Below are positions 37,753 through 44,223 of a stretch of DNA of 64,000 bases, one piece after another. Source of the stretch: an uncultured Planctomycetaceae bacterium (GTDB lineage: Bacteria > Planctomycetota > Planctomycetia > Isosphaerales > Isosphaeraceae). Below the pieces are notes generated by a model, which saw only the letters and a list, made by a program, of their open reading frames with translations, ran no database searches and had not been told where the DNA came from. Within the stretch, counting starts at the first letter, position 1; every line of letters begins with the position of its first letter. A program made the translations under genes and the position numbers. The stretch lies in contig CAWIAD010000001.1 in assembly GCA_963833985.1 (NCBI GenBank), positions 736,001 through 800,000 of the forward strand, read 5' to 3'.

Positions 37753-39204
37753 GGAAAACTCCGCGAAAGGTCTTACGATCCTCGTCTCGCGATCCCTTGA
37801 TAATGGATTCTTTGCGTCATGAATCCACACAGCCCGCCGTGCTTCAAGGTCGTCGTTCCCTATCGTCAGGCCGGAGTTCGCGTGCTAAGCAGGTTCGCAA
37901 TGGTTCTTTGACAGGCATTCAGTGGGTTGATGCGATCCTGGATGACCGGGAGGCCGCTCTTTGTGGGACACGACTCCCGTGCGCCGTGGAAAGGTGTTGG
38001 TCTTCAGTGGGTGTAACTCCCACCCGGCAACTGGGTCGCTCCAGCCGGTAGCTATCGGAGCGGCGGTGGAGGAGACGAAACCGTCGGAGCCTTCGAGACA
38101 GATGTGTCGCTTGGCGATGCAGCGAACCGACAGGCCGTAACGCGAGTGAACGTTGAGCAGGCCTCGAAAAGTCCAATGTGGTCGCCGACCTTGCTGGAAT
38201 ATGGGGAAGGCCGCCGTCGCTGGGGATGAAAGGGAAACGGTTGGAATAGGCCGCCCCACGAGCGATCAGAACCCAGCGGGCCACCGGGGTATTGACGACG
38301 GCATGTCGGCACACGGAGATCAACACAACACGGGAAACCCCAAGCGGTGAGGGCGCGTGACCCTCAACCGGACGCCCGCGAGGGACCGGCCGGGCTGCCT
38401 GGGGTGGCGGAGAGGCCCGTAGTACCGTCGACGCCGGGTAACTCCGGTCGAGGGAAGGGGCCTTGGTTCAAGGTCAACGCAACAAGCGGCAGACAGCCGG
38501 GAGATTGGCGTGAGTCTATCACCTCCACTGAAGGTCGGGAAGTTGCAGACGGCGTTGCACACCAAAGCGAAGAACGCGCCCAACTATCGGTTCTACGTCC
38601 TGTACGACAAGATTTATCGACGTGACGTTCTGGGATTCGCCTACGAACGCTGCCGTGCCAACGGCGGCGCGCCGGGGATCGACGGCCAGAGTTTCGCCGA
38701 CATCGAGGCGTCCGGGAAGGAACGATGGCTGGACGAACTGGCGGAACAACTTCGTAAGGAGACGTATCAACCCCAGGCGGTGCGGCGCGTGTACATCCCC
38801 AAAGGGGACGGCAAGCAAAGGCCGCTGGGCATTCCTTGCATCAAGGATCGTGTGGTGCAGATGGCTGCGGTGCTGGTCTTGGAGCCGATCTTCGAGGCCG
38901 ACCTGGAGCCGGAACAACACGCCTACCGCCCGGAGCGCAGCGCCCTGGACGCCGTCCGCGAAGTCGAACGGCTGCTCAAGACGGGGCACACCGAGGTGGT
39001 GGACGCGGACTTATCTGGATATTTCGATAGCATACCCCATTCCGAGTTAATGAAATCGGCGTCACGGCGCATCAGCGACGGTCGCGTCCTGCGGCTGATC
39101 AAGATGTGGCTGGAAACACCGGTGGAAGAAACCGACGGGAAGGGGCAGCGCCATCGAACGACCCGGAATAAAGACCAGGGGATGGGTACACCGCAAGGTG
39201 CACC

Positions 39205-41223
39205 GATCACGCCCCCAACAATGTTGCAAAATCGTCCCTGATTCCTGACTCTGTCATTTCCAGATCGCGGCTTCGACCGAAGTACGGGCACGGATGGCAG
39301 CCCCGACTCGATCCCGATCCAAGGCAGGCTGGCGGCCGCGCTCTCGGAGAGGAGGAGTCGACATGATCACGTCCCCACGGAGGCCCACGTTCAGTCCTCC
39401 TGTCACCCGCCACTTCGAGTTCACTCGGCTTCAGGAGCAATTGATCGCGCGTGCATATCAGGTCTTGATCCCGGTCGTTTCGCAGCGCCTGGATCGGCCG
39501 CGACCCAGCCGCAACCACGCGACTGTGGTCCACACTATCCAGTCCAAGGTCGGGGGGGTTTGACAAACCATGATCACGGACAATCTCCGCGTGGCGCTCT
39601 ACGCCCGGGTTTCGGGGGAGCAGCAGGAGAAGGAGGACACGATCGCCAGCCAGCTCGAGGCGGTCACTCAGCGGATCGCCACTGATGGCTTGGAATGCGA
39701 GCCCGAACTGCACTTCGTGGACGACGGCGTCAGCGGTTACATCCTGGCCCGACCGGCACTCGAGCGACTTCGGGACCAAGCCGCCGCTGGAGCCATCGAC
39801 CGCCTCTATATGCTCGATCCGGATCGACTTTCACGCAAGTATGCCTATCAGGTCTTGATCCTTGAGGAACTTATCCGGTGCGGTGTCGAGGTCGTCTTCT
39901 TGCGCAACCCCGTCGGCCGCAGTCCGGAAGCCGACCTGCTGCTTCAGGTCCAGGGAATGATCGCGGAATACGAGCGCGCCAAGATCATGGAGCGTTGCCG
40001 CAGGGGCAAGCAACACGCCGCCCGCCGCGGTTCGGTCAACGTCCTCAGCGGCGCGCCGTACGGCTACCGTTACATCGGCAAGCACGAGGGAGGTGGCGAG
40101 GCGCGTTATCAGGTCCTCGCTGAAGAGTCCCGGGTCGTGCGGAAGATCTTCGAATGGGTGGGTCAGGAACGGTGCTCGATCGGCGAGGTGTGCCGACGCC
40201 TCCGGCGCGACAGTATCCCGACGCGGACCGGGAAATCGGCCTGGGATCGCGCGACGGTCTGGTTGATCCTCAAGAACCCTGCCTACAAGGGGACCGCGGC
40301 CTTCGGCAAGACGCGCTCAGGTGAGTTCAAACCTCAACGCCTCCGCCCGCAGCGAGGCCGCCCCGAACACTCCCGGCGACCGGTCTCACGGGTTGATACA
40401 TCCTCGGAAGATCAAATCTTCATTGAAGTCCCCGGGCTGGTGAGCGAAGACCTCTTCCTGGCTGTCCAGGCCCAGCTTGAAGAGAACCGGCAACGCCGTC
40501 GCGACCGGCCCGGCGGTGGCCGATATCTGCTCCAGGGCCTGGTCGTCTGCAAGCGCTGCGGCTACGGCTGCTACGGCAAGCCGACGAGCCGAGCCGCGTT
40601 CGAGGGCAAGGGTAGGGTCCGCTACGCGTACTACCGTTGCACGGGCTCTGACGCCTATCGTTTCGGCGGGCAGCGCCTCTGCTGGAACAAGCAGATCCGC
40701 ACCGATATCCTTGACGCTGCCGTCTGGGAGGACTTACGAGGTCTCCTGTCCGAGCCGGAGCGGGTCCGGGAGGAGTACGAGCGGCGGCTGCAGGGTGCCC
40801 AGGGCGGGCCGAATCAGGAGGTGGAGCATCTCGGCAAATTGATAAATAATGTGAAAAAGATGATTTCTCGATTAATCGATGCTTACGGCGACGGGTTGCT
40901 CGACAAATCGGAGTTCGAGCCCCGGATCTCGGCGGCAAGGACGCGCCTCTCGAGATTGGCGGAGGAGCATCGACAACGAATCGGCGAGGCCGCCCAAGAG
41001 GCGGAATTGCGACTGGTGATCGGTCAGTTGGAGGAGTTCGCACGTCGCGTCTCGCAAGGGTTGCAAGAGCCGGACTGGGCCACGCGACGGGAGGTGGTTC
41101 GGGCCTTGGTGAAGAAGGTCGAGATCGACGAGCAGGAGGTCCGCATCGTGTATCGGGTCAGTCCGTCCCCTTTTGAGAAAGGCCCCCAACAACGTAGTTC
41201 GCAACATTGTTGGGGGCGTGATC
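39205..41223 (+). mobile_element. Large-serine-recombinase mini-element integrated in the intron RT gene
   Basis: Perfect 23-bp inverted ends GATCACGCCCCCAACAATGTTGC (39205-39227)/GCAACATTGTTGGGGGCGTGATC (41201-41223); GATC at both junctions; removal of 39209-41223 restores the RT frame. Confidence 0.92.
39363..39563 (+). CDS. 66-aa basic protein upstream of the recombinase (candidate directionality factor or regulator)
   Basis: RBS GAGGAGGAG before ATG 39363; RHFEFTRLQEQLIARAYQVLIP; stop 6 bp before the recombinase start. Confidence 0.7.
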   Translation: MITSPRRPTFSPPVTRHFEFTRLQEQLIARAYQVLIPVVSQRLDRPRPSRNHATVVHTIQSKVGGV

Positions 41224-41444
41224 TCACCATTGTTGTCCAACATCTACATGCGACGATTTGTGAAGGGATGGAAGACTGGTGGACACGAGCGGCGTCTGGT
41301 CGCGCGAATCGTCAACTATGCGGACGACTTCGTCATCTGCTGTCGCGGCACGGCCGAAGAGGCCATGACGGTGATGCGGAAGATGATGTCCAGGCTGAAG
41401 TTAACGGTGAACGAGACCAAGACGCGGCTGTGCCACCTGCCTGA
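39570..41444 (+). CDS. Large serine recombinase (resolvase + recombinase + Zn-ribbon + coiled coil); reads through the right junction
   Basis: ALYARVS catalytic Ser, DDGVSG, RPALERL, DRLSRK, APYGY, YLLQGLVVCKRCG...YYRC. Confidence 0.96.
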   Translation: MITDNLRVALYARVSGEQQEKEDTIASQLEAVTQRIATDGLECEPELHFVDDGVSGYILARPALERLRDQAAAGAIDRLYMLDPDRLSRKYAYQVLILEELIRCGVEVVFLRNPVGRSPEADLLLQVQGMIAEYERAKIMERCRRGKQHAARRGSVNVLSGAPYGYRYIGKHEGGGEARYQVLAEESRVVRKIFEWVGQERCSIGEVCRRLRRDSIPTRTGKSAWDRATVWLILKNPAYKGTAAFGKTRSGEFKPQRLRPQRGRPEHSRRPVSRVDTSSEDQIFIEVPGLVSEDLFLAVQAQLEENRQRRRDRPGGGRYLLQGLVVCKRCGYGCYGKPTSRAAFEGKGRVRYAYYRCTGSDAYRFGGQRLCWNKQIRTDILDAAVWEDLRGLLSEPERVREEYERRLQGAQGGPNQEVEHLGKLINNVKKMISRLIDAYGDGLLDKSEFEPRISAARTRLSRLAEEHRQRIGEAAQEAELRLVIGQLEEFARRVSQGLQEPDWATRREVVRALVKKVEIDEQEVRIVYRVSPSPFEKGPQQRSSQHCWGRDLTIVVQHLHATICEGMEDWWTRAASGRANRQLCGRLRHLLSRHGRRGHDGDAEDDVQAEVNGERDQDAAVPPA

Positions 41445-42017
41445 GGAGACGTTCGACTTTCTGGGTTATACCCTCGGCCGGAACTACGACCGACGAACGG
41501 GCCGATCCTACATAGGGTCACGCCCATCGCGGAAGAAGATCATTCGGCTGTGCAGCGAGATCAGTGCGATGACGACGCGCCAGACCACTGGACAGGACGT
41601 CGAGATGCAGATTGGTCGGATCAATCGCAAGTTCCGCGGTTGGTCCAACTATTTTCGCATCGGAACGGTGAGCCCAGCCTATCGCCAAGTCAACCACCAC
41701 GTCCGCTACCGGGTACGTCAGTGGTTGTGTGCGAAGTTCAAGGTGCCGGGTCAGGGGCTCAGACGCTACCCTGACAGATACCTGCACCAGGAGTTGCATC
41801 TTTACCAGCTGCAACGAACCTAGCCGCGATGGTTTCGTGAGCGAACGTGTGAACTCAACCGATGAGACAAGCCTTGTCCGAAAGCTGGATGCGGGAACAC
41901 CGCCCGTCCAGTTTGATGAGCGGGGTGTGGAAACGAGGCCCAGCCGAGCCATCGACTCGAGCCCACCGCGCCACACCTCGACTCTACATCTTGTCACTTC
42001 TTCGATCTGATGGAACC

Positions 42018-42085: not shown

Positions 42086-42368
42086 GAGAGCGGCCAGGCT
42101 TGGCTCTCAGCCCCGGGCAAGCGAACGGCCATCCTGTCCAAAGACTTCTGTGGATTTGCTGAGGCTTGCAAATCGCACGCCCGTCGCTGCGCAGCCCGAA
42201 GCGAGAAGCCTTGCAGGAGATTGGCGGGTTGCGCGGCGTTGACCCACCCTACGAATTTAGATCATATCTCAAGCAAATCAATGCATTATCCAGGACCTTT
42301 CGCAACCGTGCGGAAGCGGTCAAAATCATCGATGAAGATTTGTAGGGTGGGTCAGCGCAGCGCAACCC

Positions 42369-43815
42369 CATAGCGTCCAACTTAAGGAATTTGGCCTAGA
42401 AAAAAAGAAAGGAAGTCCTTAATCCAGTTCGCGTTGTATCGAGCAAGCGCGTCCTGGAAGAAGGAGCTTCCGTTGGGGATCATAAACAAGGTGGCCGTGT
42501 TGTTGCAATCGAGCTTGGGTTCGAAACTCGACGAGATCGGTCGTGCGACGGGCGTGATCCGGCGGCAACGAAAATTCTCGGGCGCGTCGCTGCTCAAGAC
42601 CATGGTTCTGACTGTGATGAAGACGCCTCGCCCCCATACCAACGACTTCGTCGCGACGGCGGCACTGCTGGGTGTGAACGTGACTGCCGAGGCGATCGAA
42701 AAGCGGTTCTCGGAGAAGCTCGTCGCGCACTTGCGCGCGGGTTTGGAACACGTGTTGGAGTCCGTCGTGGAGGCGTCGGCGGCCGGCGTGGCGCTGCTGG
42801 ACAAGTTCACCGCCGTCGTGATCGCCGACAGCACCACGGTGACCTTGCCCGACGAATTCGAGGCGGAATTTCCCGGCTGCGGTGGCAAAACGGGCAGTGG
42901 TAAGGCAGCGGTGAAAATTCAGGTGGCGTGGGAACTGCGCCGCGGTCAGTTGGAGAAGTTGGAGGTCCATCCCGGTCGTCACAGCGACGCCACGAGCGTG
43001 GACGTGGACGCACCAGTGGCCTCCGGATCGCTGACGCTCCGCGACCTGGGATACTTTTGCCTGGAGCGGTTCCGATCCATCGGCGCAAGGAGCTTATTGG
43101 ATTTCGCGTTGGCAACACGGCACGGCCGTTTTCGACGCGGAGGGGCGGCGATGGGAGATGCTGGCGTTTCTCCGACGGCAACCCGCCGGCATGCCGGTCG
43201 ACGTGTCGATCGCGGTGGGCGCGGCGGAGCGTCTGGGATGTCGGTTGATCGCCTTGCGAGTGCCTCCGGAGGTGGCGAACCGACGTCGGCAAGCGGCCTA
43301 CGAAAAGGCTCAAAAACACGGCCGCGTGCCCACGCAAGAACATCTGGACTTGTGCGACTGGACGATTTTCCTGACCAACTGCCTGGCCGCACTTCTGACG
43401 TGGAAAGAGGTCGTGGTCCTGTATCGGACGCGCTGGCAAATCGAACTGCTGTTCAAACTTTGGAAATCTCACAACCACCTCGCCGAGTCGCGTGCACACT
43501 GGACCAGCATGGAACGCCTGGCGTTGTTCTGGGCGAAACTGATCGGCGTGGTGCTTCAGCATTGGCTGCTCCTGACCGCGAACGCGGCCGATCCCCGCCG
43601 CAGCCACTGGAAAGCGGCCCGCGTCATCCGGAACTGGATGGAATCCCTGACCCGAGCGTTGGATAACATCGACGAGCTCATACGCACCTTGAGAGACATG
43701 GCCACGACGATCGCTAGCGTCGCTCAGAAGAAACGTCGGAAGAAACGGCCCAGCCTATTCCAACTCCTTTTGGATCCAGAACTTCTGGAATGGAATCCTT
43801 AAGTTGGACGCTATG
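42369..43815 (+). mobile_element. IS4 family insertion sequence (IS231/IS186-like CAT... ends)
   Basis: 20-bp perfect IR CATAGCGTCCAACTTAAGGA (42369-42388)/TCCTTAAGTTGGACGCTATG (43796-43815); flanking 20-bp near-direct repeat. Confidence 0.92.
42473..43802 (+). CDS. IS4 family DDE transposase (frameshift near 43085)
   Basis: IADSTTVTLP, LRDLGYF, YRTRWQIELLFKLWKS (YREK motif); stop codon lies within the right IR. Confidence 0.93.
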
Positions 43816-44223
43816 GGGTCAGCGCCGCGCAACCCGCCAATCGAGGGAGATTTGTAGGGTGGGTCAGAGCGAGCGCGGCCCACCAAACCCTCTGAGTGAT
43901 CCGTCGTAAACTTCTGGGATCTGGTGGGTTGCGCGGTGCTGACCCACCCTACCAGACTCGTTCTAAGCCAAGGGACACAACATCGAGGGGGTTTCGCGAG
44001 GGTGCGGAGGTGGTCAGAATAATTTGCGACGGCGTCGAGATTGCGGCGATGAGGCACTGGCTGCTTGCGATGCGAGGCCGCAACTCCTAAAACGAATGCC
44101 AATGAATTCAAGGCGATCGAAGGGACAACCCCCTGGGTGAGACCGGATATCCTGGCCAGGGGGTGGTCGCCGTGGTGGCTGAGTTGGTTCGTGCAGCAAA
44201 GGCAGGCTGCCGGGGAGAGACGA

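Follow-up and report, generated by a model that had tools for sequence, protein, structure and literature searches.

The C-terminus of the large serine recombinase described here depends on the recombination state of its element, as an earlier note on this DNA had claimed. The tail of an integrated copy varies with the flank, whereas the tail read in the circular form is conserved. Comparison of the family makes it highly probable that this circle tail is a selected part of the recombinase protein.

An element with attP inside its recombinase gene

The window, i.e. the whole stretch of 64,000 nucleotides analysed here, comes from an uncultured Planctomycetaceae bacterium. It contains a 2,015-bp element made up of a small gene and a large serine recombinase gene, whose insertion splits the RT gene of a group II intron at the PQG motif. 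Both junctions carry GATC (39205–39208 and 41220–41223) and lie within a 26-nt inverted repeat with 96% complementarity (repeat pair I3). Removal of the 2,015 bp in silico yields an RT of 432 aa with a single terminal stop, in which the motif GTPQGAPISPLL is restored. The features are as follows.

38005–38145, + strand: part of domain 1 of the group II intron RNA, the element's host (Rfam RF02003, 98.9 bits)
38510–39207, + strand: 5' half of the intron RT gene with the PQG motif at its end, left half of attB (Pfam RVT_1; rejoins the 3' half to give the 432-aa ORF)
39205–39230, no strand: attL with GATC, AT crossover at 39206–39207 and left inverted-repeat arm
39208–39366, + strand: circle-only C-terminal tail of the recombinase, 52 codons and TGA (family comparison, joined forms L081 and P0156, AlphaFold)
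Within the tail, + strand: conserved core at about 39229–39288, predicted beta-strand at 39247–39261, and a distal part under weak constraint
39363–39563, + strand: small conserved ORF of 66 aa, candidate recombination directionality factor (RDF)
39570–41222, + strand: core of the large serine recombinase, 551 codons, reaching the crossover without an element-encoded stop
41198–41223, no strand: attR with right inverted-repeat arm (encodes QHCWGRD), GATC and AT at 41221–41222
41223–41444, + strand: incidental read-through of 73 codons in an alternate frame of the RT 3' half, varying among copies and relatives
41223–41823, + strand: 3' half of the intron RT/maturase gene, right half of attB (Pfam RVT_1 and GIIM)
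41880–41962, + strand: group II intron 3' domains (Rfam RF00029, E 2.4e-4, 36.1 bits, under the gathering score of 40)

Since off-target copies share only AT with these sites, we place the crossover at the symmetric central AT (39206–39207 / 41221–41222) and not at the whole GATC. A 2-bp core between inverted-repeat arms is typical of large serine recombinases, and the protein has the matching domains: Resolvase, Recombinase and Zn_ribbon_recom were found with Pfam, together with a coiled coil, in agreement with the fold matches of P0156. The crossover lies within the recombinase reading frame, and the first codon of the tail is 39208–39210. The element is thus an integrative element of IS size with attP inside its own recombinase gene.

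The earlier note had described a recombinase with no stop of its own, whose frame meets the right junction at residue 551. Indeed the frame is open from 39570 to 41444 (624 aa) and passes the junction at Asp 551 (GAT, 41220–41222). Also as predicted, in the in-silico circle it runs on to TGA 39364–39366, giving a recombinase of 603 aa whose stop overlaps the small ORF's ATG at 39363 as ATGA.

No sigma-70 promoter or terminator was found in 39100–39700. A strong local hairpin lies at 41180–41224 (z -3.9), where part of the att arm is repeated internally, immediately upstream of attR; it is not a feature of the whole family, as z below -2 was found in only 7 of 41 elements, four of them from the Planctomycete clade. 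Downstream, at 42365–43819, lies a DDE transposase element with perfect 24-bp terminal inverted repeats and a frameshifted ORF. It sits among REP-like palindromic repeats (42219–42368 and 43816–43959) that recur many times in the genome.

Integrated copies end in whatever the flank supplies

This genome carries 11 full-length copies of the element, which are near-identical (0–1 differences, one with a 1-nt insertion). Seven are located in the intron RT in the orientation of the window copy and encode 624 aa, two are inverted in the intron RT (598 aa), one lies at an unrelated site with only the central AT in common (573 aa), and one lies at another site and has the 1-nt insertion. AT is present on both sides in 10 of the 11. 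Because copies in one genome give 624, 598 and 573 aa, the integrated tail is simply what the flanking DNA provides. In relatives it measures 0–372 residues with a median of about 35, and in two of them (L034 and L055) the junction codon is followed at once by a host-derived stop. A protein search with the recombinase, in which E 1e-50 was passed by 7,999 of the 8,000 candidates scored, gave the same picture: the circle tail is absent from the best 120 matches, 113 of which have unrelated tails after a QHCWGR-type motif. We therefore dropped the idea of a second specific form defined by the 73 borrowed residues, since integrated tails change with target and orientation; a fixed host-derived end as in Mx8 does not occur here. 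The possibility that one of the tails ends in a degradation tag was likewise discarded, no common terminal residues being visible by eye in 24 elements.

The insertions may result from catalysed recombination of attP with attB, of which the sequences give indirect signs: filled and empty sites coexist, the empty-site joint appears in 2 of 4 runs, and a circle contig (L081) is available. The genome itself holds two empty copies of the intron, both intact. At about 4,627,200–4,628,500 of contig C2 lies a diverged, internally deleted intron copy; of a related recombinase (76% identity) it has kept the 3' part together with attR and nothing else. Contig C1 starts in the 3' half of RT and C2 at an inverted attR; as both begin at element/intron junctions, one more copy may sit in an assembly gap.

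The circle tail is conserved across the family

We collected 95 loci, namely the window, 79 genomic loci (best of 548 found), 3 viral loci and 12 of 32 plasmid records. Five were too short, leaving 90 that were scored. A DNA-only profile of the arms, blind to the tail motif, called 62 of these; 11 more were accepted by eye, partly via the tail motif, which gives 72 called loci without L102. The 17 uncalled loci are mostly contig ends or have divergent arms. A phylum search over 301 genomes, with at most 4 candidates scored per genome, gave 1 other genome and did not enter the comparison. Family members are not independent of each other; the tail pattern, however, recurs in separate clades.

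The crossover falls in one and the same codon phase at 61 of the 62 blind-called loci, which span several phyla. The exception, L102, has a frameshift in an A-run before att that puts the crossover out of phase, and its left end retains the tail motif. The first eight codons of the tail are fixed by the inverted-repeat arm. Past the arm, codons 9–24 are stop-free in all 31 non-redundant blind-called elements, against 6 and 17 for the other frames, and in 41 of 41 when the rescued loci are included. At one locus (L026) a stop occupies tail codon 8, with the motif intact behind it.

Selection estimates by pairwise counting, with non-independent pairs and a bootstrap over codons, gave pN/pS values for codons 9–28 of 0.41, 0.49, 0.56 and 0.46 in four clades, the intervals lying below 1 in all four. 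In the other forward frames the values range from 0.9 to 2.7; one reverse frame shadows the low values of the tail, as expected from shared third positions. For comparison, omega is 0.21 in a stretch of the recombinase body and 0.61–0.75 in the distal tail. Identity of the left-end DNA by codon position is 0.44, 0.56 and 0.31, tail indels in DNA-only alignments of close clades are multiples of three, and pairwise protein comparison yields a mean score of 33 among circle tails compared to 15 among integrated tails. The peptide reads approximately NNxAK, a hydrophobic-alternating stretch and IxR..L, and was found in Planctomycetota, Chloroflexota, proteobacteria, a cyanobacterium and Actinomycetota.

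Could the left end be conserved merely as DNA, for binding sites or a promoter, with the open frame as a by-product? Some of the data would suit such neutral read-through: 52 codons without a stop are weak evidence when taken alone, since 21% of base shuffles of the window frame are also stop-free, codons 1–8 are fixed by the arm, and joined forms are rare in the searches (0 of the 120 best protein matches, 1 exact form among 175 tail matches). It is the family comparison and not the single window frame that excludes chance: the 41 elements have no stop in codons 9–24 while shuffles average 27, with a minimum of 15 in 500. The codon-position pattern, the frame-specific pN/pS and the in-frame indels point the same way, so that the codon tests largely refute this explanation, which we regard as highly improbable. 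The earlier note had named random circle tails or stops before att as results that would speak against it; the tails instead are conserved and probably under purifying selection. Stops 68–190 codons upstream of att do occur at 4 of 72 loci. As they are located inside the conserved body, these loci fit broken copies.

Several further features of the sites were noticed. The RT gene adjoins the element at 40 of 72 loci, 18 in the same orientation, 20 inverted and 2 with both. Core dinucleotides of attL and attR are equal at 46 loci and unequal at 26, and some elements (L007, L052) have the RT 5' half on both flanks, which suggests recombination between copies or mismatched integration. An alphaproteobacterial subgroup (L099, L100, L107) has a different shared target sequence, a GT core and no adjoining RT, and may thus have changed its target. 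At none of the 72 loci is the crossover dinucleotide preceded by T (window position 41220), so the junction codon can never be a stop, whichever dinucleotide the target donates. The arm symmetry is broken at the position equivalent to 41220 in 12 loci with an A-starting left arm, mostly from one clade. In distant members (L078, L104, L105, L106, L108; 37–45% identity) a further gene separates the tail from the small ORF; its annotation in L104, L105 and L108 is ribbon-helix-helix/CopG; called elements reach about 2.2–2.26 kb.

Joined forms in nature

We scanned metagenome and viral contigs for the attP palindrome as a mark of circle junctions. Nine metagenome matches were obtained, of which one (L081) is family DNA and eight have no recombinase match; viral contigs gave none. 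L081 is a contig of 2,114 bp with a 123-bp terminal repeat and represents a circle of 1,991 bp or a tandem junction. It is 99.9% identical to the element integrated in L034, apart from which its recombinase has a 1-nt insertion, and its frame continues through attP into the predicted tail. A search with the tail profile returned 175 matches. The one exact joined form, P0156, is a recombinase fragment on a 1,509-bp contig with the predicted Planctomycete-type tail at its end. P0131 has one additional codon where the recombinase C-terminus meets the tail, either a variant joint or an insertion beside another copy's end. The remaining 173 lack a match to the recombinase C-terminal profile and are read as host frames entering attL. 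Joined forms with the conserved C-terminus are thus present in nature in L081 and P0156, both from relatives. The assembly of this genome contains no attP junction of its element, and no circle junction was seen among the joints listed for the four runs, which cover contigs of relatives at low depth.

Predicted structure of the tail

P0156 was modelled with AlphaFold in two forms of 472 and 295 aa. The alignments had no full-length rows that pair a distant core with its own tail, and placement of the tail depended on the rows; A5 and A6 were used, A3 and A4, with misplaced tails, were left out. Both models show disorder across attP (pLDDT below 50) and in the distal tail. The tail core reached a pLDDT of 72 in the 472-aa model and of 76 and 84 in the 295-aa model and is modelled as a paired beta-strand followed by a short helix. 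It is predicted to pack back as a beta-strand beyond the canonical fold, onto the C-terminal (zinc/DBD2-coiled-coil) half. The folded part of P0156, which lacks the catalytic N-terminus, matches the integrases of SPbeta, LI, Bxb1 and phiC31. These solved structures align only up to about residue 400 of 472, before att, and hence the canonical fold is complete in the integrated enzyme, the predicted strand being an addition of the circle. Judged from the sequences, joining of the ends brings in a linker formed by the att arms and, from the left end of the element, some 20 conserved residues.

The small ORF and translational coupling

The small ORF is inherited together with the recombinase, being present at 70 of 72 loci. 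Its 66-aa product carries the motif FExxRL..L..AY..L.P and has no match in Pfam or NCBIfam, while matches in the Atlas are clusters of hypothetical proteins only. The idea that the tail and the small protein are homologous mimics was dropped: their profiles show no similarity, at a probability of 0.1. The small gene ends 6 nt before the recombinase start, so both proteins are probably co-produced in either state. Should the small protein be an RDF, some other means of distinguishing the two states would then be needed.

The tail might serve mainly for coupling, such that a ribosome that has completed the recombinase on the circle starts again at ATGA on the small gene. Overlap of stop and start is indeed found in the window and at 30 of 72 loci, in Planctomycetes, Pseudomonas/Burkholderia and two further lineages, and the length of the distal tail is constant in the overlap clades despite its weak amino-acid constraint. 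Counting non-redundant elements, however, only 10 of 41 have the overlap, and in 12 of 41 the tail extends past the core of the small ORF. Moreover, the small ORF has its own upstream GGAGG, and coupling would leave the conserved tail residues unexplained. We consider coupling as the main function very unlikely. Of the two features that the earlier note expected to be conserved after circularisation of homologues, the open tail frame has held up; the ATGA overlap, on which its translational coupling was based, is real in part of the family, far from universal, and on these sequence counts at most a clade feature.

A possible role in directionality

A role of the tail in directionality or stability, the switch envisaged by the earlier note, is plausible by analogy with characterised recombinases. 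According to the accessible text of PMC12286644, the DBD2 sheet gains a strand from most RDFs, and in SCCmec recombinases this site could be blocked by C-terminal strands. On this basis, and on that of the models, we favour by a little over an even chance that the circle-only strand makes the enzyme insensitive to the RDF and biased towards integration. The strand would most likely occupy or reshape the edge of the DBD2 sheet, the docking place of directionality factors. Translated from the circle, the enzyme would integrate regardless of the adjacent small protein, and the tail-less enzyme from an integrated copy would excise with the help of that protein. Integration would in this way strip the recombinase gene of its own integration-promoting piece.

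A less probable explanation, though one to be taken seriously, is that, much as in Mx8, the enzyme depends on the tail for full activity or stability, whichever direction it works in. The weak integrated enzyme would make excision rare, a burst of strong enzyme from the circle would ensure reinsertion, and direction would be set by the small protein or by transcription. All evidence for conservation of the tail fits this equally well, and the tail packs onto the domain in both AlphaFold models. According to the part of PMC4701971 that treats Mx8, integration replaces 112 residues by 13 and the product is less active, which favours such control of activity. On the other hand, the canonical fold is complete without the tail, and the 11 near-identical copies show recent movement, so that integrated genes need some activity.

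The polarity could also be the opposite, with the tail acting as a brake or fused RDF-like strand on the circle-made enzyme at attP or other sites, and the tail-less enzyme from chromosomal copies performing integration. Such a tail would resemble most RDFs, which add a beta-strand to DBD2 (PMC12286644, in the text available), in that it is predicted to add one itself. An element arriving in a naive cell, however, has the joined gene only, so that the joined form would have to integrate, and we hold this polarity to be quite unlikely.

Relation to known systems

In Tn4451 and Tn5397, transposons with the serine recombinases TnpX and TndX, a circle is the intermediate, the core has 2 bp and several targets are tolerated. 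Circle formation there builds a promoter and is not known to build an enzyme C-terminus. The split of SSV1-type archaeal integrases takes away a major part of the integrase protein. These are tyrosine recombinases, whereas the present element retains the whole canonical fold. What the SSV1 type has in common with it, as far as the consulted sections of PMC5861418 and PMC4383910 go, is that the own att site interrupts the integrase gene upon integration.

Att sites inside integrase genes are indeed already in print, at least in the excerpts on which we draw, for Mx8, SSV1, the rumA ICEs and Goe14. The Int gene of myxophage Mx8 likewise contains attP, and integration swaps the C-terminus and alters activity as a molecular switch (PMC4701971, PMC6070905, PMC4383910, in the passages concerned). 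Mx8 Int is a tyrosine recombinase with a fixed host-derived end of 13 residues, while here a serine recombinase receives arbitrary host ends. The streptococcal rumA ICEs have serine integrases with att inside the integrase gene, and differ in being conjugative with one chromosomal target, as described in the relevant part of PMC4701971.

Another close case is Bacillus phage Goe14 (bioRxiv 10.1101/2021.11.22.469490). In the preprint text at our disposal, a large serine integrase has attP in its C-terminal coding region and is shortened upon integration; its authors speculate that integration is the task of the long form and excision that of the short one. This phage is large, has spoVK as its fixed site in the host and loses 131 aa, and neither an RDF gene nor a selection test is in view in that text. 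The present element, by comparison, has about 2 kb, inserts in either orientation and also off target, and carries a conserved tail core of about 20 residues and a small conserved gene.

The best NCBIfam matches of the recombinase are SCCmec CcrB/CcrC and XisF (E about 1e-29), at scores well below the curated cut-offs of these equivalogs (103/900, 86/900 and 102/375 bits). AlphaFold models of the SCCmec enzymes presented in PMC12286644, in the portion used here, show additional strands at the C-terminus, by which the RDF site could be blocked; in Ccr these strands would seem to be part of the ordinary gene product and not added by circularisation.

In literature listings and the openings of abstracts, and by terms in Durrant et al. 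(PMC10083194), we found no description of the intron-targeting element family; the supplementary tables of that paper could list members. The principle of att within an integrase gene is known. What the present family adds are the signs of selection on the tail across phyla, in an intron-targeting element of about 2 kb. In the published serine-integrase cases, as far as their accessible text goes, tail swapping has been described and speculated on and not tested, whereas here the comparison of circle tails points to selection.

How large serine recombinases choose their direction when an RDF is lacking, or in spite of one, is an open question, which the available part of PMC12286644 raises for enzymes with extra C-terminal strands. 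A single 2-kb element provides a natural pair of enzymes with and without the strand and makes this question directly testable. Database entries of the family are integrated copies with arbitrary host-derived ends, so mining for integrases would assay an enzyme without its own C-terminus. If the strand does act against the RDF, these 20 residues could become a portable switch for engineered integrases. For the family itself, we put forward as a tentative and rather doubtful proposal that this very large group of minimal, intron-parasitising elements sets its direction by the geometry of its genes: circularisation would add an anti-RDF strand that excludes the RDF encoded by its neighbour gene, and integration would remove it.
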